64,000 nt of DNA from Chthoniobacterales bacterium (GTDB lineage: Bacteria; Verrucomicrobiota; Verrucomicrobiia; Chthoniobacterales; JACTMZ01): assembly GCA_044371145.1 (NCBI GenBank), contig JBILUI010000001.1, positions 3,497-67,496 of the forward strand. The letters run 5' to 3'. Below are positions 30,433 to 57,544 of the stretch, piece after piece. The position numbers were made by a program, and so were the translations under genes. Positions within the stretch are counted from its first letter, which is position 1. Each line of letters begins with the position of its first letter. The notes under the pieces were generated by a model, which was not told the DNA's origin, ran no database searches, and was given only the letters and a program-made list of their open reading frames with translations.

Positions 30433-30460
30433 GGGACGTTCGATCTGCTACATACGCTTA

Positions 30461-34733: not shown

Positions 34734-34765
34734 GAGATCAGTTGCGGGACGGCGCTTGAAGTTAT

Positions 34766-35947: not shown

Positions 35948-36267
35948 CGCCCGCGCCCGGGTGATCGGATCAGCATCAGCCTGGCAAACACAGTCCTTGC
36001 TCCCGGTTGGAGAATTGTGAGGAAATGCCGACCATGACTTTTTCCAATATCGTCGGCGGTATCCTCAGACCTTTCATCAGCCCGGGTCAGGAGCAGGCTC
36101 TGGTGCAAGTGCAGCAGGAAACCTAGACAGCGTGGCAGCACCGCAAGGGACTGCGCAAAATCCGCAAATGCGATCTGCTGCGTCCGCCGAGAATCAACCT
36201 CGGCAGCGGCGCCACGACCAAGCCGGGTTTTCTCAATATCGATATCTGCCCGGTAACCGATGTCAGT

Positions 36268-36732
36268 TTGGACCTGCGGCGTCCTTTGCCGTTCGAGGAC
36301 AATTGCTGCGATCTTATTTTTTCGGAGCACGCGCTTGAGCATATCGATTACCCTTGGCCGGTCATCGGTCTCCTCAGGGATTGTCTTCGCATTTTGAAGC
36401 CGGGCGGCAGATTAGCTTTCAGTGTCCCCGGGACGGAGTGGCCGCTGCTTGATTACCCGAAGGGACCCGATGCACCCTACTTCGAAGCATGTCGCGAGCA
36501 TCGCTGGCACAAAGGCTGTACCACGCGCATGGAACACATCAATTACCACTTCCGCCAGCGCGGGGAGCATCGCTTCGCTTACGATGAGGAAGCGGCAGCC
36601 AAGCTGCTGCCTGAAGCGGGTTTTGTGGGGCCGAGGAGACGGAAACCAGACCCGTCGCTTGACTCGGAGCATCGCTGCAAGGGCGGAGGCGGACTATTTA
36701 TGGAGGCTTTTAAGCCGGGCAGACAGGTCTGA
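36268..36732 (+). CDS. SAM-dependent methyltransferase, interrupted or start-less (probable pseudogene)
   Basis: The ORF-track TTG start at 36268 lies downstream of the in-frame SAM-binding motif RINLGSGATTKPGFLNIDI (36190..36246). No ATG/GTG/TTG lies between that motif and an in-frame TAG at 36124..36126. An in-frame ATG at 36034 lies upstream of the TAG. See findings. Confidence 0.55.
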   Translation: MDLRRPLPFEDNCCDLIFSEHALEHIDYPWPVIGLLRDCLRILKPGGRLAFSVPGTEWPLLDYPKGPDAPYFEACREHRWHKGCTTRMEHINYHFRQRGEHRFAYDEEAAAKLLPEAGFVGPRRRKPDPSLDSEHRCKGGGGLFMEAFKPGRQV

Positions 36733-37708
36733 TTGCGCGTTCCAAGGAGGCGCGCCAATGCGCCGCGGTCTTCTTCAGGACAAAAGAAAAAGAGTCGCCC
36801 AGTTTCAGTTCGCGGCACTGGCTCGGTTCAAATGCGGCGCGGTCGGCTGGCCGGCAATAGGGAAGAACCCGCTTGAAAATGTGATCAGGCAACCAACTGA
36901 GATTGAGCGTGACCAGCCGAACGGGCGCATCGTTGTCGGCCAGAAAAGCGAAGGCTCCTCCCCGCCGGTCGAGCGCAACTTTTTTGACCGGTATCCTGCC
37001 GGAAACCTTGCCGCGCGCCGGCACAAAGCCCGTGACCATGGCTAGCGCATCATCAAATAACTCCCCGTTACGCGGTTCTCCCAAGGCGCAAGTCCGGGTT
37101 TTGCGCAGATCGCGGAAGTGCTGCCAAGCGTCCATTTCATTGAAGGCCAGCCCGGAATGTCTGGCCAGCCTCTCGCTTTGTGCGGCAAGGAATTTATCGT
37201 CGCTGTAGAGGCGGAGAATATGTGAGGTGAATTCCCCGACAACGGGCATCGAGTTCACAAGACCGTTCAGGCAGCACCCTCTGCACTGCTCCGTTGCCTC
37301 GAAGGACGCCAGCGCCTTTTCTGAGGGCAGCAAGTCGGCCGCCACCATGGTATCGGAATCGAACGTCCAGAACCGCGCGATGCCGGACGCCCGGGCAAAC
37401 TCTTCGAGAAAGAACCATCGTTCGAAGACAAAACCAAGCCAATGTGCCGTTCCGCCGTGCTTTTTGAAGTGATGTCGCTTCCCCTCGATGGGCCGGAAGA
37501 CCTGACGGAAGCGATGCAGCTTCGGCGAAACCTCCAGCGAAGCGAACGGCAGAAAATCCACGCCGTTAGGAACGAATTGTTTGTTCGTGTCGTCCCCCAG
37601 GAAATAAATTTTTTTTCCCGGATTGCTCTGCACAGCCGCCCGCAGGGTCCACCACAGATAGCGGGATGGACCGTAATGGATAAAGACAATCGGCGCGTCG
37701 TTAACCAT
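36710..37708 (-). CDS. Hypothetical protein, possibly GT-A-like
   Basis: 332-aa ORF starting MVNDAPIVFIHYG, with a WTFDSDTMV (DxD-like) segment. No family recognised. It overlaps the convergent methyltransferase by 23 nt. Confidence 0.5.
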   Translation of the reverse strand: MVNDAPIVFIHYGPSRYLWWTLRAAVQSNPGKKIYFLGDDTNKQFVPNGVDFLPFASLEVSPKLHRFRQVFRPIEGKRHHFKKHGGTAHWLGFVFERWFFLEEFARASGIARFWTFDSDTMVAADLLPSEKALASFEATEQCRGCCLNGLVNSMPVVGEFTSHILRLYSDDKFLAAQSERLARHSGLAFNEMDAWQHFRDLRKTRTCALGEPRNGELFDDALAMVTGFVPARGKVSGRIPVKKVALDRRGGAFAFLADNDAPVRLVTLNLSWLPDHIFKRVLPYCRPADRAAFEPSQCRELKLGDSFSFVLKKTAAHWRASLERAIRPVCPA

Positions 37709-38945
37709 CGGAATGCCGCATCAAGCGACGAAAACACCTGGCGAACCACGGCTGCAGGACGGCTTCACGCTCCCTCTTCAAAATTTGTCTGCGCTCTTCG
37801 TGCACGCGGAGCGCGTGGTCGTTGGCGGGCACGAGTAGCGATGAGGATGCGGCCGAAGGGGCTGCTTCCATCAGGAGCGTCTCTTCCGCCGTGGCGGACT
37901 GCAGCAATCTCCACCCTTCTGACAGTCGATCGGACACAATGCCCGTCACGCAAACAGGTTCGGATAGATGGCACCGCCAGTCGCAACCCCGGCAAGGCAC
38001 ACGCGCAGTGAGCACAACCGAACGCGAACCGCGGGGTAAAAATCGCGGCCAGTGTCCCCCGCCGAAAACCGAAAGAACCGGGCGGCCAAGCGCGTTGGCC
38101 AAGTGCATCGGTCCGCAATCTTTTCCGACAAAGGCGTCGGAACCGGCTATGACACCACACAAGGCGGCGATGCGCTGGGTTTTCCCGGTCAAGTCGTGGT
38201 GCCGATGCGGATAGGCCATGCGCGACAGGATTTCGGCATGCGCTCGCTCCTCATCAGCACCGCCCACAAACACGAAAGGCAAACCGGTCAATGCCTCGAT
38301 TCCGCGGAGGGCCTCCGCCCAACTCCCGGTGCCCCAGCCGGCAAAGTAGTCGCCACGCCGGTAGCCTGCGCAGACGACGATATAATCGTCCGGCAAACCA
38401 GCGGGGCGCGGAAAGCCACCCGCCGAAGCAGCAAAGCGGAAAGGCCGAAGTTCTTCCGCCACGATCGGGCCAAGAAAATGTTCCGCCGCGAGACGGTTTC
38501 TCTCGAATTCGTTGTGCCCGGGTTCGACAACTACGGAAAAGTCATGGCAAGCAGCCAATTCGCGCGGATCCATGATACCCTCGCCCGGCCAGAAGCCTTC
38601 GGACAAACGGAAGCCGCCGATGAGACCTCTTTGCCTCTGCGCGACAAATTGTTCCTCGAGAAATGTTGGTTGCGAGGGACCGAAGAAAATCACTTCCGGG
38701 GAGAAACGACGCACCGCTTCGAGTTCGCGGCGGTAAGGGAAACGGCGACTGCGGGCCGTCTTGGAATACGGACTGAGCGACAAACAGACCGCATCGGCTT
38801 CCAAACCGGCCAATTCCGCCAATTCGACGGTCGGTTGTCTGGCCAAAAGCTGCAACTGCCAACCCGCCTTCTTCATGGCCAGAAGCCACGGCAAGCGGAT
38901 CAGGAAGTCGCCGAGTCCGTCGGGACTTGTCAGCGTCCACTTCAC
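37701..38945 (-). CDS. Glycosyltransferase family 9 (heptosyltransferase-like)
   Basis: N-terminal SPDGLGDFLIRLPWL and C-terminal FVGKDCGPMHLANALGRPVLSVFGG. The GTG at 38945 forms a GTGA overlap with the upstream stop. The ORF-track 590-aa version runs through the upstream gene. Confidence 0.8.
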   Translation of the reverse strand: MKWTLTSPDGLGDFLIRLPWLLAMKKAGWQLQLLARQPTVELAELAGLEADAVCLSLSPYSKTARSRRFPYRRELEAVRRFSPEVIFFGPSQPTFLEEQFVAQRQRGLIGGFRLSEGFWPGEGIMDPRELAACHDFSVVVEPGHNEFERNRLAAEHFLGPIVAEELRPFRFAASAGGFPRPAGLPDDYIVVCAGYRRGDYFAGWGTGSWAEALRGIEALTGLPFVFVGGADEERAHAEILSRMAYPHRHHDLTGKTQRIAALCGVIAGSDAFVGKDCGPMHLANALGRPVLSVFGGGHWPRFLPRGSRSVVLTARVPCRGCDWRCHLSEPVCVTGIVSDRLSEGWRLLQSATAEETLLMEAAPSAASSSLLVPANDHALRVHEERRQILKREREAVLQPWFARCFRRLMRHSDG

Positions 38946-40087
38946 AGTCCCGAGCGAACAGCCAGTTCGGAGGCAAAGCGTCCGTAGTTCAACTTGAAGA
39001 GCGCACGGGTATGCGCGGCTCTTGCGTGCTCCCATGCTGCGCGCGCGCGCGCCTCGATCTCGGTCGGGCTGAAAGCGGAAATGGTTGCCGCCGCAGAACG
39101 CACCGCCTCGACAGAACCTTCTTCGATGAGAACGCCAAAAGCACCCAAATCGACCGAAGACTCGTGTGTGCAGGCAGGAAGCAAACCGGCATGGAGGCAA
39201 TGTATCACACTGCCTGCACCTCCTTCGGCACAGGAAGGGTAAATGATGGTGCCGTGTGTCCGTGCTATTTGCCCGAAATCCGGAGAACCCATATCGAGCC
39301 AGCCGTGAAAGTGAATATTCGGAGAATGTCTGAGTTGTTTTTCGTAGAGCTTGTGGAAATCCGCTTCCTTCTCCGGGCGACCGCAAACCGTAAGCTGCAG
39401 GTCCGGGAGCGAGGCAAAGGCGTCGAGCACCAAGTCCAGGCCTTTGTGCACCATCCCGTAGCTGCCAACCCAAAGAAACTTGCGCCGCGCCTGTTCGAAG
39501 TCGCGGTCACGCGGCCATTCGAATTCGTAGGCCGAGGAAATGGGGATACGCATAACCGGCTTGCCGGTGAACAAAAAGCTTCCGGATGTGTAGTCGTTGC
39601 CCAAGACAACGATTCTGTCGACCAGTTCACTGCTCGCGCTGGGAACATTTTGCCTGCGCGGGCGCAAGGCGACGCCTTTTCTGTTGCGGACGCCCGAAAG
39701 GCGCGCCAACTCCGCCGTGTTCCAAGCAAGCCAATGCGATCCGGTGGCATGAAGTATCTTCATGCAGTCCGGGCGCAGCGCCGGCAACCATCTCTCCATG
39801 TCACCATGGAGATCGATAACCACCGCTGCATCGGGAGGAGGAAAGTAGCTCTCGTTGCGGTGGTCGACCACTTCCACACGGAAACCAAGGTCACGCCACG
39901 CTTCGGTCATCGCGACAACCTCGAAAGCGTTGGTATGACCCCTCGCCCGCGGCAAATCCCACCCTTCGCGGAGCGGCCACGAGATATAGGAAATCACCAC
40001 CGCACCCCGTGCCTTCGATGCGGGGGCCACGACAACGGGACGACGATTTTTACGATCTGCGAAAATTTTTCGGATTTGGTTGAGCAT
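38942..40087 (-). CDS. Glycosyltransferase, GT4-like
   Basis: FLWVGSYGMVHKGLDLVL and IIYPSCAEGGAGSVIHCLHAGLLP. I chose the ATG at 40087 (MLNQIRKIF). The ORF-track start 40225 overlaps the upstream gene. Confidence 0.75.
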   Translation of the reverse strand: MLNQIRKIFADRKNRRPVVVAPASKARGAVVISYISWPLREGWDLPRARGHTNAFEVVAMTEAWRDLGFRVEVVDHRNESYFPPPDAAVVIDLHGDMERWLPALRPDCMKILHATGSHWLAWNTAELARLSGVRNRKGVALRPRRQNVPSASSELVDRIVVLGNDYTSGSFLFTGKPVMRIPISSAYEFEWPRDRDFEQARRKFLWVGSYGMVHKGLDLVLDAFASLPDLQLTVCGRPEKEADFHKLYEKQLRHSPNIHFHGWLDMGSPDFGQIARTHGTIIYPSCAEGGAGSVIHCLHAGLLPACTHESSVDLGAFGVLIEEGSVEAVRSAAATISAFSPTEIEARARAAWEHARAAHTRALFKLNYGRFASELAVRSGL

Positions 40088-40154
40088 GGAGAACAGCGGT
40101 TTTTGCGGCTTATCGTGGATGAGGTTGACTGAGCGTACCCGAACTCCGGGCGTC

Positions 40155-41045
40155 TCAGCGCTGCAGCAGCGCCCTGACTTCCCGCATCCATCCGAGAAGG
40201 AATTCGACCGTCGAGATCGACGCACGGTTTAGAATCGATTGCCTCGCCCGCGCGAACTGCGGGCGCCATTGGCCGAGCTCAAGACACCGATTCGGGGCGC
40301 TATTGAGTGGCGGCGCAAATTCGCGCAGAGTTTCCGGGCGAATCTCGCGCAAGTCGGGCAGGAATAGCGCACCTGTGTCATGGAAGTGCGACATGGCCGC
40401 CGAATTCCGGATCACAGGTGTAGCGCCGCAGTAGAGGGATTCCCAGAACCGGTGTGTGTCCTCCCCGTTGCCGGGTGGACAGAGAACAAATTGGTGCGTG
40501 GACAAACTTCGCACATAATTCTCCTTGGCGCCCGGTCCGCCGTGGTCCGCGAAGTTGATCCAAGCTTGGGAGGATTCGCGCAGCCAAGCGGCCAGGGATC
40601 CGCGGGTCGCCTCGTTGCTGTGGGTGCTGAAGTTCGCGTAAAGCAGATTGACTCGCGGGAGACGCAGTTCGGCTGTTTGGCGAATCTGATCATGGGTCAC
40701 AGTCTTTTTGCCTCGCGCATTACCCAAGCCGAGGGGCAGCCCGCGGGCGGCCTGATTGTCCCGCACCTGCATGTTCGTGCCGAACCAGACGGCCACATGC
40801 GGCGGGCGGCGGCGCCAGAGAGCCGCATGCACGGGTTTGTCGCCTTCGCCCGTAACGAGAACGATACGTTTTCTGGTTCGGCGAAGGCTCCGGAAAAGCC
40901 GCCAGACTTCGTCTATCTTGCAAAAGACGATGTCGCCGTGACGGAAAGCCGGATCCTCGAAAGGCCGGAGGTCACTCCAAAAAGTGTGGTCGCAGAGGGA
41001 GCGAAAGGCATCCCCGCTAACCGGCTCGGCAATTTGTGGGCTCAA
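40155..41045 (-). CDS. Exostosin (GT47)-like glycosyltransferase
   Basis: YVRSLSTHQFVLCPPGNGEDTHRFWESLYCGATPVI matches the exostosin-domain C-terminal signature (F.LcP.G...s.R..E.l..G.iPVi). TTG start forms a TTGA overlap at 41042..41045. Confidence 0.7.
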   Translation of the reverse strand: MSPQIAEPVSGDAFRSLCDHTFWSDLRPFEDPAFRHGDIVFCKIDEVWRLFRSLRRTRKRIVLVTGEGDKPVHAALWRRRPPHVAVWFGTNMQVRDNQAARGLPLGLGNARGKKTVTHDQIRQTAELRLPRVNLLYANFSTHSNEATRGSLAAWLRESSQAWINFADHGGPGAKENYVRSLSTHQFVLCPPGNGEDTHRFWESLYCGATPVIRNSAAMSHFHDTGALFLPDLREIRPETLREFAPPLNSAPNRCLELGQWRPQFARARQSILNRASISTVEFLLGWMREVRALLQR

Positions 41046-42196
41046 TATTCTTTTTCCACCAGCAACTCGCGCGGCGAAAGCTCCGGATCGAGCGCCAGGG
41101 CCAGCGTTTTTTCCAACATCGCCGTGTCGATTTCGATGTCGAAATCGCGCGAGGCGTTCTCACCGAAAAGATGGTAGTGGCGCACGCCGCACAATGAAGC
41201 AACGCGATGGGCGGCATGGTCCCAGACCCTGGGGTTGAACGCCTCGATCAGGGCGCAACCCGAAGGGGCAAACAGCACGTTCATCGTCCCTGCGCCATGC
41301 ACACCGAAAATGGCTTCGGCATTCGAGAACAGCGCGACCTGAGCGGCAAAGTCCATCTCCTCGGTGAAGACTTCCTTGAAGCCGAAAGAAGCCAGGATCC
41401 TGTGCACCTCTTCGCTATTGATGATTTTACGCCTCGTGCGCTGCCGCGAGATATAGATTCGGCGCGGGCCTGATGGCGGGCCGGCGGCCTCGCGTAAGCG
41501 ATCGCGCACCCGGAGCAGAGGACGCGGGTCGGGCACGCCGCTCTTGCCGCAGGAGACAAAGCGGAGCTCGCGGAATCGCACAAGTTCCGTTGCGGGCTTG
41601 AGGACATTCGCGAGGCCAAGCAGGGAAACGCATTCCTCTTGGAAACGCGGCGAGGGTTTGTCGAGGACAACGAGCGCGGGGTCTCCGGCGGATAACGCAT
41701 CGGCTTTAGGCAAAGCATCCATGAGCCAGTGCGCGTAATTGTTCCCCCAGACGGTGCTCAACTTGAAGGCCGGTTCCTCGATGACAGGCGCTTCCTCGAG
41801 ACGCGTCGCCGCATGGCCCTCGTAAAGTGAAGGCAACGCATGAGAGGAGAAAGCGAGCACTTCGCGATCGGCGGTGATGACGAATCCCGAGGGAACATGC
41901 AGCCAGGCATCGCGGAGCACGAACTCGAAAGAAGGTGCGACCGGATAGGTCTCTCCCGTGTAAAGCCTCGCGTATTTGACGACGTCCCAAGCCCGTCGTT
42001 TTTTGACGAAAAAAACGGGTGGTTTTTCGAGAACGGCTTCGAGCGTCTGCGGGACGGCGATGGAAGGTTGCCTGCGGAAAGTCACACCTGTTTCGCGCGC
42101 TACTCCTTTGCCTTTACTCGCCAACTCAGCTGCGTCACGGACCACAGGCCAAGAACGTGCCTGCCGGCCAAAGTGCCAACTTTTCCAGGTTTTCAC
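41042..42196 (-). CDS. GT61/DUF563 family glycosyltransferase, copy 2
   Basis: NYAHWLMDALPK and RIYISRQRTRRKIINSEEVHRILASFGFKEVFTEEMDFAAQVALFSNAEAIFGVHGAGTMNVLFAPSGCALIE. The GTG at 42196 forms a GTGA overlap with the sulfotransferase stop; the ORF-track TTG is at 42208. Confidence 0.75.
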   Translation of the reverse strand: MKTWKSWHFGRQARSWPVVRDAAELASKGKGVARETGVTFRRQPSIAVPQTLEAVLEKPPVFFVKKRRAWDVVKYARLYTGETYPVAPSFEFVLRDAWLHVPSGFVITADREVLAFSSHALPSLYEGHAATRLEEAPVIEEPAFKLSTVWGNNYAHWLMDALPKADALSAGDPALVVLDKPSPRFQEECVSLLGLANVLKPATELVRFRELRFVSCGKSGVPDPRPLLRVRDRLREAAGPPSGPRRIYISRQRTRRKIINSEEVHRILASFGFKEVFTEEMDFAAQVALFSNAEAIFGVHGAGTMNVLFAPSGCALIEAFNPRVWDHAAHRVASLCGVRHYHLFGENASRDFDIEIDTAMLEKTLALALDPELSPRELLVEKEY

Positions 42197-42972
42197 GGAA
42201 GGTCCCAATCCTCTTTGCCCAGCCCGTAGCGCTGCGCCTGCTCCTCCAGAAAGATCTCATCTTCCTTGGTGAAATATTTTTTCCACTCCCCGGCGACGCC
42301 TTTTCGCGGCAGCACGGAAATGGCGTCATGTAAGCCCACCGCTTTCTGCCGCCAACGCGGCAGTGCTCCGGTCGATCGGCAGATGTCCCGCACCACGCGG
42401 CGAAAATCGCTCTTTATTTGCTCAAAACGGATCACGCAGATGTCTGGAACGGAAAGCCAACCGGAGACATGCGAGGCCCAACGGGCTGCCACGCTATCGA
42501 AACTTGCTGCGTCGGAAAAACCGTGCTTGAGGTAGTCGGTCAAAGGACGTCGCAAAAATTCCGCGAAGCTTTCGCAGCGCTGACTCTCGAGACCGGGATT
42601 GGTGCGATGGAGTTCGTCGCTGTTGAGGTAGTGGAAGAACGATACCAAGGTGTCTCGAGGATCACGCCAAACGTAAACCACCGGAGCCGCCGGATACCAC
42701 TCGCGGAAGAGATGAGCATCGGCGTGCGTCTTGACCAAACCTCCGCCATTCTTCCATAGGGGCCACTCGCGGCGGAAATCCTCGAGGTGCCGATGGCGAC
42801 TCTCAGGCCGGTCGTAGGGACCGAGCCAATCGCCGACGTAGCGCAAGTGCGGCCGGACGTAGGCGTTGGCAAAAATCGTATTGATCATGAAGTGCGTCCC
42901 GGATCTTTCGTGCGACACGACATAGAACGGTGTCTTCTTGCAGAGGATCCCGAAGATCAGCCGGTCGATCAT
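42193..42972 (-). CDS. PAPS-dependent sulfotransferase (Sulfotransfer_1/3-like)
   Basis: 5-prime-PSB loop YVVSHERSGTHF and 3-prime-PB motif VYVWRDPRDTLVSFFHY. I chose the ATG at 42972 (MIDRLIFGIL). The ORF-track start 43239 runs into the upstream GT2. Confidence 0.85.
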   Translation of the reverse strand: MIDRLIFGILCKKTPFYVVSHERSGTHFMINTIFANAYVRPHLRYVGDWLGPYDRPESRHRHLEDFRREWPLWKNGGGLVKTHADAHLFREWYPAAPVVYVWRDPRDTLVSFFHYLNSDELHRTNPGLESQRCESFAEFLRRPLTDYLKHGFSDAASFDSVAARWASHVSGWLSVPDICVIRFEQIKSDFRRVVRDICRSTGALPRWRQKAVGLHDAISVLPRKGVAGEWKKYFTKEDEIFLEEQAQRYGLGKEDWDLP

Positions 42973-43001
42973 GGATAACGCAGCTTTTTTTCCGCCGGCG
43001 C

Positions 43002-44120
43002 CTACCTCTTGCCGAAAGTGTCCATTCCCTTGCGGTAGAGAAAGACGCGCAAGTCGCGCAGGCCGCGACTCAAAGCGGAATTCAAGCGTTCGACGAAGGA
43101 CATCTGGTGGCGCGCGATCTTCTTTGCCTTGCGGTAAAGTGCCGCGTGGCCCGGCGAAGGGCAGGGAGCCGTGGAGAGTTCCAACTCTAAAAGTTTTCGC
43201 ATGCGCGACGGGGACCGCGGGACGCGATGCAACAGCCAATCTTCGATCGCATAGCGCTCCTTCAAGATTTGGTAGCGCGACGGCGACGTGAACTCTGCCG
43301 CCAAGTGCGCCGCGGCGCTACCCTTGCGGAGTCGATAACTAACCGTGCGTTCGGGGACATAGACCCGGCGACCGCCGCCTAAGGCGGAAGACATCAGCAC
43401 GACCTTGTCGGCGAAAGCCCGCACAAAAGGTCTCGCAGTTCGCGCAAACTCCTCCAGTTCGAGGCGTTTGGCGTGGTGGGCACGCAAAGAAAGAGTGGAG
43501 GTATTGTTGCCCAAGAAAAGATCGGGCAAGAAGTAAACCAAAGCCGTGCAGTATCCCCAATCATACGGTTTTTCCCAATCAATAGGGCCCAAAAGGCCCT
43601 TGAAGTCCATGGCCGATAAACTGCGCTTGAACGCGCCGATCAGATCACTGTCCCCGGTCATGGAGAAGCGGCAATAGATCAAATCAGCTTGGGGAAACTC
43701 ACTCCATCGGCGACGCATGGCCGCCAAATGACCGGGTTGGTAGCTGTCATCGCCATCGAGCAGTGTCACAATCTCCTGCCGCGAGGCCGATACGCCAGAC
43801 CCAATGGCCGCTGTTTGCCCGCGATTTTCGGTGTAGATGGTCTTTATGCAGGAGTGCCGGGCAGCCAATGCCCCGATGATTTCCCTCGAATTGTCGGTGC
43901 TCCCGTCATCGACGACGATGATTTCCTCCGGAGGTTCCGTCTGCGAGAGCACGCTTTCGATGCACTCGGCAATGTAACTTCCATTATTGTGGTTGTTGAT
44001 GAGAACTGCTATTGATGGATTGTGCACAGCGGTAATAGCCTTTCGGAACGGAATTTTGCTTTGGCAGACACGGAAAATAGAAAGAGCAGAGAAAACGCAG
44101 CACTGCTTGCGGTGCGACAT
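43002..44120 (-). CDS. Glycosyltransferase family 2
   Basis: IAVLINNHNNGSYI, IIVVDDGSTDNS and LLDGDDSY motifs. The C-terminal tail RVFLYRKGMDTFGKR is shared with the GT2 at 44304. Confidence 0.85.
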   Translation of the reverse strand: MSHRKQCCVFSALSIFRVCQSKIPFRKAITAVHNPSIAVLINNHNNGSYIAECIESVLSQTEPPEEIIVVDDGSTDNSREIIGALAARHSCIKTIYTENRGQTAAIGSGVSASRQEIVTLLDGDDSYQPGHLAAMRRRWSEFPQADLIYCRFSMTGDSDLIGAFKRSLSAMDFKGLLGPIDWEKPYDWGYCTALVYFLPDLFLGNNTSTLSLRAHHAKRLELEEFARTARPFVRAFADKVVLMSSALGGGRRVYVPERTVSYRLRKGSAAAHLAAEFTSPSRYQILKERYAIEDWLLHRVPRSPSRMRKLLELELSTAPCPSPGHAALYRKAKKIARHQMSFVERLNSALSRGLRDLRVFLYRKGMDTFGKR

Positions 44121-44175
44121 CGTAACAGAGCCCCATTAAAGCACGAGCAAGTCGCCGACATGATGCAGTCGCGGT

Positions 44176-44293
44176 CAAACATAAGTTTGGGAAAATACCT
44201 TGTGCATTTTGAAGTAGGTGCCGCGGCGCTCGTGGGAAACGATGTAAAACGGGGTTTTTCCCAAAGAAATTCGAAAACAATATCGTTGATCAT
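44176..44293 (-). pseudogene. Relic 5-prime end of a second sulfotransferase (frameshifted and truncated)
   Basis: ATG at 44293 reads MINDIVFEFLWEK. After a 1-nt shift in the run GGGAAAAACCCC it reads KTPFYIVSHERRGTYFKMHKVFSQTYV-stop (TGA 44178..44176). This parallels MIDRLIFGILCKKTPFYVVSHERSGTHFMINTIFANAYV of the intact gene at 42972. Confidence 0.6.
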
Positions 44294-44303
44294 CGCCGAC
44301 CGT

Positions 44304-45209
44304 CTACCGCTTGCCAAAAGTATCCAGTCCTTTGCGGTAGAGAAAAACGCGCACGGCGCGGAGAAGCCAATCGAACGCAGCGCGGACGGATAAATACCAA
44401 AAATCGCGACGTAACGGTGAGCCCCAATAACGAATTGCTCGCCGCCGTCTGGCGGCACTGTATTCGGCAAATCCTTTGCCTGTTTTTGCAGCTGGGTGAT
44501 AGTAAGATCCCGCCAATACTTTATCCACATTGACAAACTCAGCCTTACTCGACAAGCGTATCCAGTAGTCGAAATCCATGATCAAGTGCAAGTCTTCGTC
44601 TAGCATACCTACTCGCTCGGTAAGTTCGCGCCTCCAAAAAATTGCTGGCTGATGCATCCGGTAAGGCTTCCAGGTTTCAAGCAGTCTTCGTCGACTTATG
44701 TATTGTCCCTTTAGAACCGTTGAGTCGCGCCCGTCGGTATGGACTCTCAGAACATCACCTACTATAGCCGCAGGTTTCGGCTTTCGACAGAAGGTGCTTC
44801 CAACGAACATTAGCGTGCCGGTAAAGTAGAAGTCATCACTGTTCAACCAGCAAACGATCTCGCCTGTTGCTCGAGCAAGTCCTTTGTTGATGGCATGGCT
44901 CTGACCCCGATCAGGTTTGCTTTCCCACCAATCCAGCCACGGCGAATAGTGTTCTAGAATAAGTGTGCTGTCGTCCTTGCTGCCTCCATCAACAACAAAA
45001 TATTCCAGATTCGGATATCCTTGAAGGAGGACCGACCGAATGGTTGTCTCCAAAAACTCTGCTTGGTTGAAGGAAGGCGTGATAACAGTGATTCTCGGCC
45101 AAGAGTAATTCGTCTCTTCCAGTGGCGCGGCTTCAGATACCCATGGCCAGCATTCGCTGTCATGAACGCCTAGCCTCAGCGGCTCTGGCAAACTACGGTG
45201 CGATGGCAT
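44304..45209 (-). CDS. Glycosyltransferase family 2
   Basis: ITVITPSFNQAEFL, FVVDGGSKDDS, DRGQSHAINKG and WLNSDDFY motifs, the same subtype as 20225..21094. Visibly lower GC than the bulk of the locus. ATG at 45209; the ORF-track TTG is at 45212. Confidence 0.88.
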   Translation of the reverse strand: MPSHRSLPEPLRLGVHDSECWPWVSEAAPLEETNYSWPRITVITPSFNQAEFLETTIRSVLLQGYPNLEYFVVDGGSKDDSTLILEHYSPWLDWWESKPDRGQSHAINKGLARATGEIVCWLNSDDFYFTGTLMFVGSTFCRKPKPAAIVGDVLRVHTDGRDSTVLKGQYISRRRLLETWKPYRMHQPAIFWRRELTERVGMLDEDLHLIMDFDYWIRLSSKAEFVNVDKVLAGSYYHPAAKTGKGFAEYSAARRRRAIRYWGSPLRRDFWYLSVRAAFDWLLRAVRVFLYRKGLDTFGKR

Positions 45210-45500
45210 CAATTCAGACGGTCGGCAATTGAGTAAAATAAGTCATGCTGTTAGAAGTTCGTTTAATGGCACCGCAGGAGAGGGATACAGATTCGGAGCG
45301 AGAAAGCGTCGCCGTCCAACAAAGCCGCCACACTTTTTGATGAAGCTGATATGCAAGAGGCGACGAAGTATTCATAGTTGCTGATGGCCACGCTGATGGA
45401 GGGACGTTTGCTCATCTCAAATACGGAATCGTAGATTTCAAGCTACGATTAATCCGATGCTCCATAAGCCGCCTCGGTTCTTGGACGCATCGATGCGGTT

Positions 45501-46175
45501 TCATCGGCGGTAATAGCCAAAGAGCCTCATGTCGGAATCGTAGAGTCTCTCGATTCTGCCACGCGACAGGTCATCCAGGCCGCTGCGCCCGTCTTCCGGC
45601 AGCGAGGAATTCTGCCTGGGGATAAAATCGACTTTGAGGTCGAGCATGGACAGCATGCGCTCCAAATCCGATTCGAACGACTCCATGCGTCCGAGAAGAT
45701 CGATGTTCCCCAAGTCGACAAGCCGGGCCTGGCGGCGCAGATGGACATCGCAGCGATCGAGATCGAGGCCCTCGGCAAACGCGATGAATTCGCCGAGCTC
45801 TTTCATCCTTGCGTGATCGGAACTGCCGAATCCGAAATGGTTGCGCTCGAGCACGCGATCGCGCCAGCAGGACAAGAAGCGCTCGACGGGATCGCGGACG
45901 AAAGCGAACTTGAAATGATTCCGAACGGCTGCAGGGCGGTAATGCTGGAAGATACCGTTCTCCAGTTCGAAAACCGCACCGGCTTTTCGCAGGACGTCAA
46001 AGATCGTTCTCGTCCCGACTTTGGCCACGCGAAACCAGACGAACTTCGGTTCTCTTCCTATGGTCAGGTTGTAGCGCTGCTGGGAAGGGTAGAAACCCTG
46101 GAGAACCGCTCTCCTTGCGATGGCCTGGAAAGCGTCGTTGCGCCAACCGGGACGCGTTTCAGGAAGGTCGTGCAT
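45501..46175 (-). CDS. Sulfotransferase family 2 (carbohydrate sulfotransferase-like)
   Basis: WFRVAKVGTRTIFDVL (PAPS 5-prime-phosphosulfate loop), FAFVRDPVERFLSCW, DVHLRRQ and LGRMESFESDL, in the order typical of the Sulfotransfer_2 family. Confidence 0.8.
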   Translation of the reverse strand: MHDLPETRPGWRNDAFQAIARRAVLQGFYPSQQRYNLTIGREPKFVWFRVAKVGTRTIFDVLRKAGAVFELENGIFQHYRPAAVRNHFKFAFVRDPVERFLSCWRDRVLERNHFGFGSSDHARMKELGEFIAFAEGLDLDRCDVHLRRQARLVDLGNIDLLGRMESFESDLERMLSMLDLKVDFIPRQNSSLPEDGRSGLDDLSRGRIERLYDSDMRLFGYYRR

Positions 46176-46848
46176 GGTTCAAGCGGGACAGGAACCGCGT
46201 CGTGACTTTGCGCAAGAAATGCCTGAGGCCCCAGACATGCCCGACGCCGCGCACCAGGTAAGGCGGCGCAGGAATGGGATCGAGACCGTTGCGTAAAGCC
46301 CACGCATTGTAGGCACGGAAATTTGCCTGGTAGTAAGGATCCGCGTCTTGCGTTGCCGCAGAGGATTTGGCGTGGGAGCGGTGGTCAATATAGCCGGTGA
46401 GGTTTTCGTAATTGCCCGCTTTTTCCATCGCCCTGGAAATCCACCAGTCTACGTACGAGGCACCAATGTGTAACTTGGGGATATCTTTGGAAAGATAATC
46501 ATCCCATATCCGCAAAGGGATATAATACATATCGATACCGTGTACAAAACGTCCGCTCGGAACCTCCCGGCGGCGGAATCCGTAAACGCGGTCCGGATCG
46601 GGCACATCGAATGGGTCGCGCGTGAGTTCGACATCGGAGTTGCACCACACCAAAGCGCGGGCGGAGGTCTCACGGCGGGCTCGGTCAATGACATCACCCA
46701 AGAGGACGAGCCGACGGCCGGCCGGAAATCGGACAGGCGTTAACCCGAGACCAACAATGCTTTTATCCAGGCGTTCTTGCGCCGAATGGAGTCGCGCGTT
46801 GTCGGAGTCGGTGAGCCAGACAAATGTGACGACTCTGTTCTCCTTCAA
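46159..46848 (-). CDS. Hypothetical protein (no family recognised)
   Basis: 229-aa ORF. TTG start forms a TTGA overlap with the upstream stop (46845..46848). Lower-GC block. Confidence 0.45.
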   Translation of the reverse strand: MKENRVVTFVWLTDSDNARLHSAQERLDKSIVGLGLTPVRFPAGRRLVLLGDVIDRARRETSARALVWCNSDVELTRDPFDVPDPDRVYGFRRREVPSGRFVHGIDMYYIPLRIWDDYLSKDIPKLHIGASYVDWWISRAMEKAGNYENLTGYIDHRSHAKSSAATQDADPYYQANFRAYNAWALRNGLDPIPAPPYLVRGVGHVWGLRHFLRKVTTRFLSRLNHARPS

Positions 46849-47870
46849 GGCTTTGTGTCTTTCGTTGCCGATCCCGCAGCCATTGTTCCCTCGCCCCGCA
46901 ATTCAGGGACGGCTTTCTCGAGGGAATTCAGATAAATCGCCGATGAGCGGCTGTCCATATGCATGCCATCGGTCCAAGTCAGGCTCTCCTGGTCAACAGG
47001 CACTTGCAAGGCTGCGAAGGCTGCGGACGGCAGCCTCTGCCGGACGATTCGGAGAATGGCTTGGACGTAGGGGTGCCCGGCAAGATCCGGTGCAACCGGA
47101 AGAAAAACGAATCGTACCTTGGTGCCACGCTCCTCCAATTTACTCGCCAGACTTAACGCGCGGGAAAAATTGTCTTCGGCCCGCACTAAGACACTTTCGT
47201 CGGCCGCCAGCTTGTCGAAGAGAGCTTGTGTTTTTAGCTTAAGAGTCCCGTTTCGTTCTGCAGTTGCCGGCAGGTCGTCTGCCTCTTGTCGCTCACCGGC
47301 AACACGTTGTGCACGCTTCAGCATAAACTGCGCATCGGGATGGACACCGAAGCTGCTGGCAAACACCGTGCGGATGGGTTTCAGATCGCGAAGGACCATT
47401 CGTAGACGGTCAAAAGTTGGAGGCAATTCGCCATAGGCTCTTACAAGTTCCGTGTTGAGTTCTCTCTCCAGAAGATTGATTTCGGCCAGCACGAGTCGAG
47501 GGCGGCGATTTGACTGCGCCACGATTTCCAGACCGGTGAGAAAACTGCCTCCGGGCAAAGCAAGGTTGGAAACTTCAGACCACCGGAAAAGCTCATCCCT
47601 CATCTTGTTGCTGAGGGAGCTTCCCACGATCACAACATCGACGTGGTCTCGTGACAAAAACCGCTGCACTTTCTGGTGCTGCAAATCCCCCGGCGAAGTC
47701 GCCGGCTTCCGCACCGACCGCCAGCTATCGAAGCTCAGCACATAGAGGGAGAGCAGGATCGCGAATGCGACGACGAAGATTGCCCACCAGCGGGCCGGGC
47801 GCGCCGTCCGCTCCGGACGCACAAGATTGGTTTCATCGAAAAACGAATGAGGCGGCATACGTCGCTGCAA
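46845..47870 (-). CDS. TM-anchored SGNH/DltD-like putative acyl-transfer partner of MBOAT copy 3
   Basis: TM helix WWAIFVVAFAILLSLYVL, block-I-like VVIVGSSLSN, and C-terminal WTDGMHMD (DxxH). It starts 8 nt after the MBOAT stop and has the same layout as 31270..32412. Confidence 0.55.
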   Translation of the reverse strand: MQRRMPPHSFFDETNLVRPERTARPARWWAIFVVAFAILLSLYVLSFDSWRSVRKPATSPGDLQHQKVQRFLSRDHVDVVIVGSSLSNKMRDELFRWSEVSNLALPGGSFLTGLEIVAQSNRRPRLVLAEINLLERELNTELVRAYGELPPTFDRLRMVLRDLKPIRTVFASSFGVHPDAQFMLKRAQRVAGERQEADDLPATAERNGTLKLKTQALFDKLAADESVLVRAEDNFSRALSLASKLEERGTKVRFVFLPVAPDLAGHPYVQAILRIVRQRLPSAAFAALQVPVDQESLTWTDGMHMDSRSSAIYLNSLEKAVPELRGEGTMAAGSATKDTKP

Positions 47871-47878
47871 ACCTGATT

Positions 47879-49273
47879 TTAGAACTGAAAGTAAATAAAG
47901 GCTGTGTCAGGCCCACCTTCGATAAAGGAAAGCAGCAGAAGAACCGCATAGAGAACGGGCTCGTATTTGCGGAAGAGAGCAGTTCTTGCCAACGGTGCGC
48001 AGAGATGCTGAAGCACAACCGGCAACGCATACACAACCGCTAGGACGTAATAGTATGGACCGCGGAAAGCAGCCCAAGGATTCTCCAGCCAGCCCTGTAA
48101 ATAGGCGGTGCTTTCCGCCCATCCGTTGACCTTGAAAAGGAGCCAACCCAAGCTTACGAGGGCAAAAACAGCCGCAATCCGCAGAAAGCGCATGGGGAAG
48201 CTATGAAGCAGGCGTGCCACTCTGGGTATCGGGCCTAATAGGGTGCGAAAGGCTCTCTCGAAGCAAAGCAGGATTCCGTGATAAAGTCCCCAGACGAGAA
48301 AGTTGATGCTGCTCCCGTGCCACAAACCGCCAAGGCCCATCACGACAAGGAGATTGAAGTAGGTTCTCGATGAGCCCCGGCGACTCCCGCCCAGCGGTAT
48401 GTAGAGATAGTTCTTCAGCCAAGTTGACAGCGAAATGTGCCAGCGGTGCCAGAATTGGGCGAAGGATGCCGACAAGTAGGGCAGCCTGAAGTTCACGGGT
48501 AGCCGGTAGCCAAACAAGAGCGCCAACCCGATAGCCATGGCCGAGTAGCCAAAGAAGTCGGCGTAGATCTGGAAGCTAAAAAGACCCAACAAAAACAGAC
48601 GGTCAATGCCACCCAGAGTGCTTATGGAGTCGGCTGTCTCCATGTAAACAGTGAACTCGTTGAGGTTATTGGCACAAAAAGCCTTCATGAAAAAACCGAC
48701 CACAATCCATTTGGCGGCTGCGATGAAATCCACATCATCTATCCGCTTCGGCTCGATCTGCGGAAAGAAGCCGCGGGCGCGCGTGATGGGACCGCAAACC
48801 AGCTGTGGAAAAAAGAGAATATACAGCATGGTTTGTCCCGCGGACGGCGGAGAAACAGCCGTGCGATTCTTGGTGTAGTCGACAAGCAGGCTGATGTTGT
48901 GAAAAACGAAAAAAGAGATACCGATGGGCAATGGCAGCATGACAAAGTAGTCGAAGAAGAAAACTCCTGTTCCCGCGAAATTCAGAGGATCGACGAAAAG
49001 AAATTTGTATTTGAAAAAAGCCAACAGCGATAAGTTGGCGACCACACCGGCAATCATCCACGGAACACCGGACTTCATCGCGCCCCACAGACACGCCTGG
49101 GTGGCCAGCAGCGCGGTCAGCAAAAGAGGCAAAAATCTGGCATCGGCCCAGGCAAAGAAGAACATGCTGGCCATGATCAGCAGCGGCACCTGCATGTTTC
49201 GGAAGACAGGAGCATAATAAAGCGCGAAGACCGCAACCACGAACACGGCGAATTGCCACGAGAGAAAATTCAT
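47879..49273 (-). CDS. MBOAT family O-acyltransferase, copy 3
   Basis: FFGYSAMAIG, FWHRWHISLSTWLKNYLYIPLGGSR, GLWHGSSINF and C-terminal FIYFQF. Lower GC than copies 1 and 2. Confidence 0.92.
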   Translation of the reverse strand: MNFLSWQFAVFVVAVFALYYAPVFRNMQVPLLIMASMFFFAWADARFLPLLLTALLATQACLWGAMKSGVPWMIAGVVANLSLLAFFKYKFLFVDPLNFAGTGVFFFDYFVMLPLPIGISFFVFHNISLLVDYTKNRTAVSPPSAGQTMLYILFFPQLVCGPITRARGFFPQIEPKRIDDVDFIAAAKWIVVGFFMKAFCANNLNEFTVYMETADSISTLGGIDRLFLLGLFSFQIYADFFGYSAMAIGLALLFGYRLPVNFRLPYLSASFAQFWHRWHISLSTWLKNYLYIPLGGSRRGSSRTYFNLLVVMGLGGLWHGSSINFLVWGLYHGILLCFERAFRTLLGPIPRVARLLHSFPMRFLRIAAVFALVSLGWLLFKVNGWAESTAYLQGWLENPWAAFRGPYYYVLAVVYALPVVLQHLCAPLARTALFRKYEPVLYAVLLLLSFIEGGPDTAFIYFQF

Positions 49274-49303
49274 GACCCGACCTTGGGTTCTGGGTGCCGC
49301 AAC

Positions 49304-50287
49304 TCAGCAACACACCCGCTTCTTGGCGATTAGATCGCGCAATTCGAAGCGCACCGGACAGCTGCTACGGAAAAGCCAGCCAACAATATGGCCCCACCCC
49401 CATCGGCGCCCCGCCCGCAGGTTTTTGCGCGTGGCTCGCCACCAACCCCGCCAAGTGCCGTCGAACTGACTCCACCAGACGACGTCCATTTGACGGTAAA
49501 CCATGCCCTGAAGTTCCGGGTAACGCTGCCGCATGACCCGACTTCCAAGCAGAGAGATTAGCCTGTCGATCCTGAGTCGCTTCTTTTCTTCCAAGCCAAG
49601 CGGCGACCAGATTCCAGCAGAGTGCTGCCGGTAGGCGCAGCCATCGAAGTCCTCGAAGCCCAACAGACCGTGTTCGGTCACGAGAAGATCGAACATGAAA
49701 TCATAGGGAGTCCGGAGGTAATAGTCGGGCGTTTCGCCCATAACACACGACTTGCGAAACACAAGCGACGCCGTCGGGTATCCTGATCGCAACTCGCGGA
49801 GACAATCGGCCTGCGTGTATTCGCCCCGGTAAGCAAGTCCGTCCCAGACAAAGGGAATGATATTCCCGCCCTCGTTGACGGCATGACCCCGGTGAAAGAC
49901 AGCGGCCCAAGCCGGTTCGGACTGCAGTCGGCGCACTTGACGCTGCAATTTGGATGGCTCGGTCCAAAAGTCATCTCCTTCGCAGAGGGCTATGAATTTT
50001 CCGCGAGCGGAGCGGAATGTCTCGATCCACATGGAGCCGAGTTCCCCGCGTGAATAGCGGTTCGAAGCCTGACGATTCCACCGGAAGCGATCCGGATGTG
50101 ACTCCGCATAAAAACTCAACAGGCCCGGTGTATTGTCGGTCGAAGCGTCGTCGTTGACTATGATCTCGAACGGAAAATCCGTCCTTTGGGCCAAAAAGGA
50201 GTCGACGGCCTGGCGGATGAAGCGCTCGTGGTTGTAAGCAAAGCACACCACGCTGACAAGCGGAGCGGTCCCGGACCGAGTGATCAT
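49304..50287 (-). CDS. Glycosyltransferase family 2 (paralogue of the C-terminal half of 55385..57493)
   Basis: APLVSVVCFAYNHERF, IIVNDDASTDNT and CEGDDFWT motifs. I chose the ATG at 50287 (MITRSGTAPL). The ORF-track start 50488 overlaps the DegT gene. Confidence 0.85.
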   Translation of the reverse strand: MITRSGTAPLVSVVCFAYNHERFIRQAVDSFLAQRTDFPFEIIVNDDASTDNTPGLLSFYAESHPDRFRWNRQASNRYSRGELGSMWIETFRSARGKFIALCEGDDFWTEPSKLQRQVRRLQSEPAWAAVFHRGHAVNEGGNIIPFVWDGLAYRGEYTQADCLRELRSGYPTASLVFRKSCVMGETPDYYLRTPYDFMFDLLVTEHGLLGFEDFDGCAYRQHSAGIWSPLGLEEKKRLRIDRLISLLGSRVMRQRYPELQGMVYRQMDVVWWSQFDGTWRGWWRATRKNLRAGRRWGWGHIVGWLFRSSCPVRFELRDLIAKKRVCC

Positions 50288-50319
50288 GTCTGGAAATCGG
50301 AGCTTTCCACCGCGGACGC

Positions 50320-53119: not shown

Positions 53120-53161
53120 AATAAGCTGATTACTGCGCCATGGTTGTGTGGTGCCGCCTCA

Positions 53162-57493: not shown

Positions 57494-57544
57494 AAACCTC
57501 TTTTTCTTATTGCCGCTGAGATGAGATACCGAAACACGCTACGC

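Follow-up and report, generated by a model that had tools for sequence, protein, structure and literature searches.

Two intact sulfotransferases within a 55-kb exported surface-glycan cluster of a soil-type verrucomicrobial bacterium

Results

Organisation of the glycan locus

The window, a 64,000-nucleotide stretch of DNA from a Chthoniobacterales bacterium, carries a 55-kb exported surface-glycan cluster of a soil-type verrucomicrobial bacterium, within which lie two intact sulfotransferases, ST1 and ST2 (Table 1). The initial annotation had placed two sulfotransferase genes inside a Wzm/Wzt locus; both genes are found at the coordinates given, on the minus strand, and contain the quoted motifs. 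The exporter is likewise confirmed, Wzm by PF01061 and Wzt by a match of residues 52-260, the nucleotide-binding domain, to Aquifex aeolicus Wzt (6amx/8dku, E about 1e-65). No solved structure matches the C-terminal extension of Wzt in sequence, and only the first ~278 residues of the protein align with a Chthoniobacterales homologue. Two FkbM-type methyltransferases are encoded immediately downstream of Wzt, and the three MBOAT sets of the locus are of the O-acetylation type.

In the TM scan, the polytopic proteins of the locus are limited to the three MBOAT proteins, AT3, two PMT-like GT-C enzymes and Wzm, and the GT1, GT2, GT4, GT9, GT61 and GT47-like enzymes have no threshold-meeting TM segment near the N-terminus. 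Pfam and TM scans of the about 75 window ORFs yielded no candidate Wzx flippase or Wzy polymerase. Neither a priming phosphoglycosyltransferase (WecA/WbaP-type) nor a ligase (WaaL-type), which would define the end product as O-antigen, capsule or protein glycan and may be encoded elsewhere, has a match in the window.

Same-strand genes around ST1 and ST2 are packed tightly, with a 16-nt overlap between the ST1 stop region and the GT61 start and a 17-nt overlap between the ST2 start and the unk229 stop region. The unk229 protein, which has no Pfam or NCBIfam match, yields an AF2 model (pLDDT 89.7) that Foldseek matches to the fucosyltransferase WrtF (2.7e-6), and also to B4GalT1 and PBCV-1 A64R, pointing to a GT-A-fold glycosyltransferase. 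Its invariant motif is W68-C69-N70-x-D72. Of its 144 homologue clusters at E <= 0.001, the 120 listed share 57-71% identity with it, its own cluster aside, and the named ones among those listed belong to Terrimicrobiaceae and Chthoniobacterales.

Table 1. Coordinates of the features described, in window positions
Feature	Coordinates	Strand	Description and evidence
Whole glycan locus	5633..59261	-	>20 soluble GTs, 3 MBOAT sets, AlgX-like proteins, AT3, methyltransferases, DegT aminotransferases, N-acyltransferases, FabH-like protein, GT-C enzymes (Pfam and TM scans)
Block downstream of ST1	36710..42208	-	GT61, GT47-like, GT4, GT9, unknown protein of 332 aa (unk332) (Pfam)
ST1	42193..42972	-	259 aa; soluble, cytosolic-SULT-like predicted PAPS sulfotransferase; PF00685, 56.8 bits (cut-off 22), residues 18-199
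GT2a	43002..44120	-	Family-2 glycosyltransferase directly upstream of ST1; PF00535, 96.2 bits
Relic	44145..44293	-	Initial ~50 codons of a gene resembling ST1, carrying a frameshift and a stop (tblastn)
GT2b	44304..45212	-	Family-2 glycosyltransferase in low-GC island, followed by the relic; PF00535, 71 bits
ST2	45501..46175	-	224 aa; soluble Sulfotransfer_2-family predicted sulfotransferase; PF03567, 67.9 bits (cut-off 22), profile positions 10-251 of 252
unk229	46159..46848	-	GT-A-fold glycosyltransferase by model; stop region overlaps ST2 start
Wzt	53881..55101	-	ABC ATPase, PF00005; ~145-aa C-terminal extension
Wzm	60456..61313	-	ABC-2 permease; PF01061, 84.2 bits

Two sulfotransferase families

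The Pfam scan assigns ST1 to Sulfotransfer_1 (PF00685) and ST2 to Sulfotransfer_2 (PF03567), both far above the cut-offs, in agreement with the initial assignment to two different families; ST1 also scores 28.3 bits with Sulfotransfer_3. No TM segment was detected in either protein by the TM scan. The start of ST1 at 42972 matches the N-termini of its homologues. Its best solved relative is human SULT1C3 (PDB 2reo, E 2.7e-11), in an alignment that takes in the KTH, RDPRDxLVS and RKGxxGxWKxYFT motifs, the 3'-phosphate motif and RKG loop pairing with 'VARNPKDCLVS' and 'RKGMPGDWKNYFT' of SULT1C3. Across ~34 homologues, down to 37% identity, the 5'-phosphosulfate loop S20-H-E-R-S-G-T-H27, with Arg in place of the canonical Lys, is invariant or nearly so. 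The same set leaves invariant K81, the R103-x-P-R-D..S111 motif (R103, P105, R106, D107, S111) and, in the RKGxxGxW loop, P222-R223-x-G225..G228. The catalytic histidine, H83 in LVKTH, aligns with LIKTH of SULT1C3 and is also invariant.

ST2 shows corresponding conservation over ~34 homologues, down to 32% identity: W47, R49, A51-K52 and G54-T55-R56 in the 5'-phosphosulfate loop, V93-R94-x-P96..R99..S102 in the 3'-phosphate motif, and H145 and Q149 are invariant. Neither sequence nor profile searches found a solved relative of ST2 in the PDB. Its AF2 model (pLDDT 89.8), compared with the PDB by Foldseek, gives top matches that are nearly all PF00685-type sulfotransferases and all weak (best E 0.026, every E > 0.01). 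PF00685 and PF03567 have the sulfotransferase fold and both PAPS-binding motifs in common, and Synechocystis XssA matches PF13469, PF00685 and, weakly, PF03567 together; with the Foldseek matches, this makes the earlier description of the two families as unrelated an overstatement.

Relic and low-GC island

A search of the window with ST1 by tblastn returned one extra match, at 44285..44145 (-), with 53% identity over 47 aa (E 3e-11), an in-frame TGA and correspondence to ST1 residues 4-50. The relic of a third sulfotransferase previously proposed at 44176..44293 is thus real, though slightly longer than claimed, and it is frameshifted, as the ATG at 44293 lies in another frame. The relic DNA aligns with the GT2a-end/ST1-start junction, including a 63-nt direct repeat of 84% identity (42999-43061 versus 44301-44363). 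GT2b and GT2a share 35% identity in the catalytic domain and 63% in the last 27 aa. The island, in which both GT2b and the relic lie, has a GC content of about 0.50, compared with 0.58-0.61 in the flanks. A third ST1-like gene probably arrived with GT2b on this lower-GC segment and then shrank to the 50-codon remnant.

Conservation in relatives

ST1 lies in a clade-conserved part of the locus and ST2 in a more variable part. The ST1 block, composed of Wzm, Wzt, the new GT-A protein unk229, ST1, GT61, GT47-like, GT4 and GT9, is common to Chthoniobacterales and Terrimicrobiaceae genomes, and the series ST1-GT47-like-GT4-GT9-unk332, together with Wzm, Wzt and unk229, recurs in assemblies of both groups. 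The GT61, GT47-like, GT4, GT9 and unk332 genes follow the ST1 homologues in the same way on contigs L001, L004, L006 and L009 and are rearranged on L014; a GT2 gene directly upstream of ST1 is also found on the L001 and P0002/L006 contigs. Wzm is 51% identical to the Wzm adjoining the ST1 block in the Chthoniobacterales MAG L009.

In the closest relative, with an ST1 of 82% identity, the order ST2-GT2-GT2-ST1-GT61-GT47-like is retained. At least five metagenomic relatives encode homologues of both ST1 and ST2 on one contig, the two occurring together only on contigs of closer relatives. Identical copies of ST1 and ST2 are present on 8 and 4 independent contigs, respectively.

PAPS supply

A scan of both strands, covering about 75 window ORFs, gave no APS-kinase or ATP-sulfurylase family match, which bears out the reported absence of PAPS-synthesis genes from the window, and none occurs among the genes called within 10 kb past either window end on matching contigs. 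Co-location of PAPS genes with sulfotransferases is the hallmark of a sulfated-polysaccharide cluster in the Vibrio study (PMC11641403). The present locus falls outside that definition, cysDN/cysC being absent from the window and from 10 kb on either side.

Discussion

Sulfation of the exported glycan

The presence of ST1 and ST2 suggests that the exported polymer is probably sulfated. We favour, with a probability of about 0.72, a reading in which both are active, soluble, PAPS-dependent O-sulfotransferases decorating the glycan of a ~55-kb ABC-transporter-dependent locus in the Chthoniobacterales/Terrimicrobiaceae group (Verrucomicrobiota). Polymer assembly would take place on the cytoplasmic side of the inner membrane, where soluble glycosyltransferases would extend a chain attached to a polyprenyl carrier. 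ST1 and ST2, drawing sulfate from cytoplasmic PAPS made by genes elsewhere in the genome, would then O-sulfate the undecaprenyl-linked intermediate before ABC export, each on a different sugar hydroxyl; from two enzymes, two sulfation positions can reasonably be inferred. Judged solely by gene adjacency, the acceptors are probably the products of neighbouring glycosyltransferases, GT2a or GT61 for ST1 and unk229 or GT2b for ST2. Wzm/Wzt would export the sulfated chain, which the MBOAT/AlgX-like sets and GT-C enzymes would modify further in the periplasm. Counting against this reading are the absence of APS-kinase and ATP-sulfurylase genes from the window and from 10 kb on either side, the weakness of the structural matches of ST2, and one ST1 homologue, in Planctomycetota L012, outside a glycan context.

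Both enzymes might instead be merely linked to the locus and act on another acceptor, such as an LPS core or lipid A sugar, a glycolipid, a small molecule or a protein. Such a role would fit the GT9 (heptosyltransferase-family) gene in the conserved block next to ST1, the small-molecule substrates of ST1's closest solved relatives, and a planctomycete ST1 homologue (Planctomycetota L012) that lies outside any glycan locus. We consider it improbable, however, given that both genes sit within one operon-like array with frames overlapping GT genes, that linkage to GT genes is kept over 40-80% sequence divergence, and that GT9 scores far under the LPS heptosyltransferase equivalog cut-offs (36 bits versus 185). 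Decay of one or both enzymes, leaving a glycan that is not sulfated at present, appears the most remote of the alternatives: ST1 and ST2 are full length relative to their homologues, keep all family-invariant residues and recur as identical copies on independent contigs, against which stand the clear decay of the third copy, the recombination scars and GC dip around ST2, GT2b and the relic, and the lack of local PAPS supply genes in the window and 10 kb at either end.

Known ABC-dependent O-antigens carry methyl, phosphomethyl or Kdo caps, and by analogy one sulfotransferase could add a terminating sulfate at the non-reducing end, a cap that would set chain length and be read by the Wzt C-terminal extension before export. 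The lack of any match of this extension to solved structures, the restriction of Wzt alignment to its first ~278 residues, as expected of a glycan-specific module, and the clade-conserved block that ST1 shares with Wzm and Wzt are consistent with such a cap. It is nevertheless very improbable, since the two FkbM-type methyltransferases just downstream of Wzt make a methyl cap the simpler candidate, and the single-domain ST1 and ST2 lack the long coiled-coil or multidomain architecture of known terminators such as WbdD and WbbB.

The favoured reading, O-sulfation of the exported glycan by ST1 and ST2, would add abundant soil and freshwater Verrucomicrobia, lineages usually studied as degraders of sulfated polysaccharides and not as producers, to the makers of sulfated surface polymers. 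It would further provide a pair of compact, soluble carbohydrate sulfotransferases from bacteria, belonging to different families and each accompanied by candidate partner glycosyltransferases; there is demand for enzymes of this sort in making sulfated glycans enzymatically or microbially. We know of no biochemically characterised bacterial polysaccharide sulfotransferase in either the ST1-type or the ST2-type subfamily. A broader proposal, which we regard as speculative and unlikely, is that sulfation by a small, previously undescribed SULT-like 'SHERSGTH' subfamily is a lineage-wide conserved trait of the main ABC-exported envelope glycan in soil and freshwater Chthoniobacterales/Terrimicrobiaceae, with sulfate possibly serving also as a terminal signal read by the divergent Wzt C-terminal domain. 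If true, a non-marine, non-cyanobacterial phylum would for the first time have a defined O-antigen-type polymer that is sulfate-capped or constitutively sulfated.

Comparison with known systems

Eukaryotic cytosolic SULT1/2 enzymes align with ST1 at the KTH catalytic histidine, RxPxDxxVS and RKGxxGxWKxxFT, but identity is low and the N-terminal loop is PKSGTTW in SULT versus SHERSGTH in ST1. SULT acceptors are small phenols and steroids, whereas the context of ST1 suggests a glycan. In rhizobia, NodH, LpsS and KpsS use PAPS to sulfate sugars of Nod factor, LPS and K-antigen; their genes are not known to lie within a Wzm/Wzt mega-locus, and Sinorhizobium devotes nodPQ to PAPS supply.

Published examples of bacterial polysaccharide clusters that contain sulfotransferases, ABC-type ones among them, already include those for synechan and of other cyanobacteria, of Vibrio KMM 8419 and of Pontiella, and the initial view that surface-glycan sulfation is uncommon is dated in light of these clusters (PMC8205485, PMC11641403, PMC7356697). 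In the synechan (xss) cluster of Synechocystis sp. PCC 6803, as here, two sulfotransferase genes of 'distinct subfamilies' lie in one cluster, among eight GTs; both were shown genetically, and the product of this two-sulfotransferase cluster bears 2 sulfates per 8-sugar repeat (PMC8205485). Synechan differs in being Wzx/Wzy-dependent, plasmid-borne, hosted by a cyanobacterium and controlled by the dedicated regulators XssQRS, and XssA and XssE, both of PF13469/PF00685 type, resemble ST1 only at the 3'-phosphate motif.

The Vibrio sp. KMM 8419 capsule cluster combines ABC-transporter export with several sulfotransferases scattered among GT genes, as in the present locus, but uses a Kps-type capsule exporter and contains a second cysDNC (PAPS) set (PMC11641403). 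Its sulfated polysaccharide structure was determined, and its three sulfotransferases were reported without biochemical characterisation (PMC11641403). Pontiella sulfatireligans F21, broadly from the same phylum, has a putative cluster for a sulfated glycosaminoglycan-like product, which includes a sulfotransferase with GT2, GT4 and aminotransferase genes as well as YfhO, and for which a sulfated exopolymer was detected (PMC7356697). This organism, unlike the present one, is a marine anaerobe of the Kiritimatiellae with a PF13469-annotated sulfotransferase and a mostly N-sulfated polymer, and a Wzm/Wzt context is not described for it. In a Pontiellaceae MAG, an ST1 homologue of 45% identity is flanked by GT2, YfhO-like and GT10 genes.

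Two apparent PAPS-type sulfotransferases in the glycan locus

The two sulfotransferases, ST1 and ST2, belong to different Pfam families. ST1 scores 56.8 bits against Sulfotransfer_1 (cut-off 22) and 28.3 bits against Sulfotransfer_3, and ST2 scores 67.9 bits against Sulfotransfer_2 with almost the entire profile covered, bearing out both sulfotransferase calls of the initial annotation; its description of the two families as "unrelated" is overstated. The top PDB-sequence matches of ST1 are animal cytosolic sulfotransferases, the best being human SULT1C3 (E 2.7e-11), in an alignment that spans LVKTH with the catalytic His, the 3'-phosphate motif VVYVWRDPRDTLVS and RKGVAGEWKKYFT. ST2 has no solved relative: a single-sequence search of the PDB is empty, and a profile search returns chance matches only (ribosomal eL22, capsid proteins). 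Its AlphaFold model, built with 34 homologues as input, is confident (pLDDT 89.8), and the top Foldseek matches in the PDB are nearly all sulfotransferases, every one weak (best E 0.026).

An alignment of 34 homologues reveals that SHERSGTH, K81, H83, R103-x-PRD...S111 and PR-x-G..G (222-228) are invariant or almost so in ST1, a conservation that extends to homologues at 37% identity. In the 34-homologue alignment of ST2, W47, R49, AK-x-GTR (51-56), VR-x-P..R..S (93-102), H145 and Q149 are invariant, extending to homologues at 32% identity. Neither ST1 nor ST2 contains a hydrophobic signal or anchor segment (maximum 19-residue Kyte-Doolittle means of 1.04 and 0.73). With these motifs kept and no such segment, both appear to be intact PAPS-type sulfotransferases that are soluble and cytoplasmic. 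NCBIfam holds no equivalog for ST1, ST2, the GT47-like and GT61 glycosyltransferases, or unk229, unk341 and unk332, three window proteins without a Pfam family.

Features of the glycan locus and its flank
Feature	Position	Strand	Length	Assignment
RRM_1 gene	3898..4521	-	207 aa	RNA-recognition motif
GT-like ORF	8333..9319	+		
MBOAT companion	21128..23703			
734-aa ORF	23659..25863	+	734 aa	weak PMT_2 (GT-C)
518-aa ORF	24292..25848	-	518 aa	rejected as gene
MBOAT	25853..27286	-		AlgI-like
Methyltransferase	30263..31273	+		
MBOAT	32409..33818	-		AlgI-like
Possible partial methyltransferase ORF	36268..36732	+		
ST1	42193..42972	-	259 aa	Sulfotransfer_1 + Sulfotransfer_3
GT2a	43002..44120	-		family-2 glycosyltransferase
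Relic	~44145..44293	-		decayed ST1-like copy
GT2b	44304..45212	-		family-2 glycosyltransferase
ST2	45501..46175	-	224 aa	Sulfotransfer_2
unk229	46159..46848	-	229 aa	stop region overlaps ST2 start by 17 nt
MBOAT companion	46845..47870		341 aa	without family
MBOAT	47879..49273	-		AlgI-like
FkbM methyltransferase	52205..53119			
FkbM methyltransferase	53162..53884			
Wzt	53881..55101	-		transporter nucleotide-binding protein
Aminotransferase-GT2 fusion	55385..57493	-	702 aa	DegT/DesI-like part
PIN-domain toxin gene	59733..60167	-		VapC-like
Wzm	60456..61313	-		transporter

Proposed sulfation before Wzm/Wzt export

Pfam scans of ~75 ORFs delineate one unbroken glycan locus from ~5633 to 61313, in which every gene of the ST1/ST2 region is on the minus strand. 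The locus encodes more than 20 glycosyltransferases (GT2, GT4, two GT61, GT9, GT47-like and two PMT-like GT-C), three MBOAT proteins, two AlgX-like SGNH proteins, one AT3 acyltransferase, several methyltransferases, with an FkbM-type pair located just downstream of Wzt, two DegT aminotransferases (one as a GT2 fusion), and PglD-like N-acyltransferases with a FabH-like gene; an ACP gene adjoining the latter is called on matching contigs. The nucleotide-binding domain of Wzt matches Aquifex Wzt (E ~1e-65), and with Wzm present the proposed Wzm/Wzt setting of the sulfotransferases holds. In a hydropathy scan only the MBOATs, AT3, the GT-C enzymes and Wzm prove polytopic, and nothing resembling Wzx or Wzy turns up. 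The earlier claim that the window lacks PAPS-synthesis genes also stands: none of the ~75 ORFs matches an APS kinase, ATP sulfurylase or PAPS-related family, and none of these families is encoded on contigs reaching 10 kb past either window end.

In the ABC-transporter-dependent pathway the full chain is assembled on a lipid carrier at the cytoplasmic face, and PAPS is present only in the cytoplasmic compartment. Since the chain would be built where PAPS is, and the sulfotransferase genes are interleaved and frame-overlapped with those of soluble glycosyltransferases, the locus is best explained by cytoplasmic O-sulfation of the lipid-linked glycan before export by two soluble sulfotransferases. 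ST1 and ST2 would O-sulfate the glycan ahead of Wzm/Wzt export, using PAPS supplied by genes elsewhere; once in the periplasm, the exported chain would be modified by the MBOAT/AlgX-like and GT-C enzymes. That the two families differ in their acceptor-binding regions suggests that each enzyme has its own acceptor position. Two sulfation positions are also plausible by analogy with the Synechocystis exopolysaccharide synechan, in which two sulfotransferases accompany two sulfates per repeat (PMC8205485).

Sulfate might instead form a terminal cap read by the Wzt extension, a reading that is less likely because the genes adjoining Wzt encode FkbM methyltransferases. Two further rivals are that the sulfotransferases act on a non-polymer acceptor, to be weighed against their interleaving with glycosyltransferases, and that their genes are inactive, to be weighed against the kept motifs.

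The C-terminal extension of Wzt (~145 aa, residues ~262-406) matches no solved Wzt carbohydrate-binding domain in sequence, and a Chthoniobacterales Wzt homologue aligns over the N-terminal ~278 residues only; together with the two FkbM genes directly after Wzt, the extension hints at a capped-chain export mechanism. The three separate MBOAT genes, whose companions are AlgX-like SGNH proteins or single-TM partners without family, such as the 341-aa ORF, imply that a single polymer may be O-acylated in the periplasm by as many as three distinct systems. The DegT/DesI-like part of the aminotransferase-GT2 fusion scores 471 bits against TIGR04427, below the 650 cut-off, and the fusion is kept at full length (44% identity) in a Terrimicrobiaceae MAG (L014). 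With the PglD-like, FabH-like and ACP genes lying upstream, it suggests an N-acylated amino-deoxy sugar.

A putative glycosyltransferase adjoining ST2

The protein unk229, which matches no Pfam or NCBIfam family, yields an AlphaFold model (pLDDT 89.7) that matches GT-A glycosyltransferases (WrtF at 2.7e-6, B4GalT1, PBCV-1 A64R), and its W-C-N-x-D motif is invariant among homologues. It has 144 homologue clusters (E <= 0.001), the best 120 of which are 57-71% identical, its own cluster aside; named homologues among the matches listed come from Terrimicrobiaceae and Chthoniobacterales. The protein looks like an undescribed glycosyltransferase family.

A sulfotransferase relic in a low-GC island

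The initial annotation had noted a relic of a third sulfotransferase, and this is confirmed. In a tblastn search of the whole window, the sole further significant match of ST1 lies at 44285..44145(-), aligning with ST1 residues 4-50 at 53% identity (E 3e-11) with a TGA in frame; the same gene begins at ATG 44293 in a different frame and is therefore also frameshifted. It occupies the gap between the GT2b stop (44304) and the GT2a start (44120). The DNA comprising the GT2b end and the relic aligns with that comprising the GT2a end and the ST1 start, and contains a 63-nt repeat of 84% identity. GT2a and GT2b share 63% identity over their last 27 residues, with just 35% in their catalytic domains. 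GC content dips to ~0.50 at ~43800..45500, against 0.58-0.61 in the flanks; the dip takes in GT2b, the relic and, upstream of GT2b, a non-coding gap of 288 nt.

An origin solely by in-situ tandem duplication was rejected, given the low identity of GT2a and GT2b outside the tail and the position of GT2b and the relic in the GC dip. Recombination or import at the conserved GT2-tail/ST-start junction, after which most of the incoming sulfotransferase would have been lost, fits better. The low-GC island, together with two glycosyltransferases so unlike save for a shared tail, suggests cassette exchange at this junction.

Conservation among relatives and known systems

ST1 and ST2 have 104 and 100 homologue clusters, respectively (E <= 1e-5), those named for ST1 being Terrimicrobiaceae, Chthoniobacterales, Litorilinea, Desulfohalobiaceae and Desulfobacterales. 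ST1 represents a small subfamily: a search of 1.84 billion cluster representatives yields 19 matches with E <= 1e-30 and 561 with E <= 1e-3. At least five ST2 homologue clusters lie on contigs equal in bp to contigs with ST1 homologues, and co-occurrence was confirmed directly for one pairing, on a 6710-bp contig. The nearest relative (ST1 82% identical) has the identical order ST2-GT2-GT2-ST1-GT61-GT47-like, and Terrimicrobiaceae assembly GCA_054683575.1 and other contigs carry ST1 followed by (GT61)-GT47-like-GT4-GT9 and an unknown protein of ~320 aa. Comparison of all window proteins by tblastn with Chthoniobacterales and Terrimicrobiaceae MAG loci revealed a common set of Wzm, Wzt, unk229, ST1, GT61, GT47-like, GT4, GT9, unk332 and GT2_d/e; these more distant loci gave no ST2 match. 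Outside this group, a homologue 45% identical to ST1 is flanked by GT2, YfhO-like and GT10 genes in a Pontiellaceae MAG, and a planctomycete homologue is without glycan context. Among PLSDB plasmids, tblastn gave no match for ST1 and matches for ST2 only at ~26% identity, in Marinovum, Paracoccus and Pseudoalteromonas.

Sulfotransferases within bacterial polysaccharide clusters are known already, and calling sulfation of bacterial surface glycans "uncommon" overstated the case. Maeda et al. showed that the synechan cluster holds two sulfotransferases (PMC8205485), the capsule cluster of Vibrio KMM 8419 encodes three sulfotransferases alongside an ABC exporter and a second set of cysDNC (PMC11641403), and Pontiella has a putative sulfated-polymer cluster (PMC7356697). 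The synechan enzymes XssA and XssE both belong to PF13469/PF00685; because their similarity to ST1 on direct comparison is confined to the 3'-phosphate motif, orthology is not claimed. New here are the host lineage, the PF00685 and PF03567 pairing, the lack of local PAPS genes and the clade-conserved ST1 block.

Other features of the locus

The PIN-domain toxin gene, preceded by a small ORF, lies between Wzm and the ACP/FabH genes and contributes to the ~5 kb Wzm-Wzt separation; in a relative (L001, 10833..11470) a VapBC pair is inserted directly after the ST1 homologue. Toxin-antitoxin pairs seem recurrent within these glycan loci. AT skew reverses sign at 24-26 kb, where the minus-strand 518-aa ORF, which has no PMT_2 match, was rejected in favor of the overlapping plus-strand 734-aa ORF, probably the real gene. 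Other plus-strand genes within this minus-strand locus are the GT-like ORF and a methyltransferase 58% identical to its Terrimicrobiaceae (L004) counterpart. A further plus-strand ORF, between GT61b and unk332, resembles class-I methyltransferase domains over their C-terminal half only (Methyltransf_11 positions 54-95) and could be a methyltransferase gene that has suffered truncation or a frameshift. Immediately outside the glycan locus, adjoining miaA and hflX, lies a gene for a protein with a eukaryote-type RRM_1 motif (71.8 bits).
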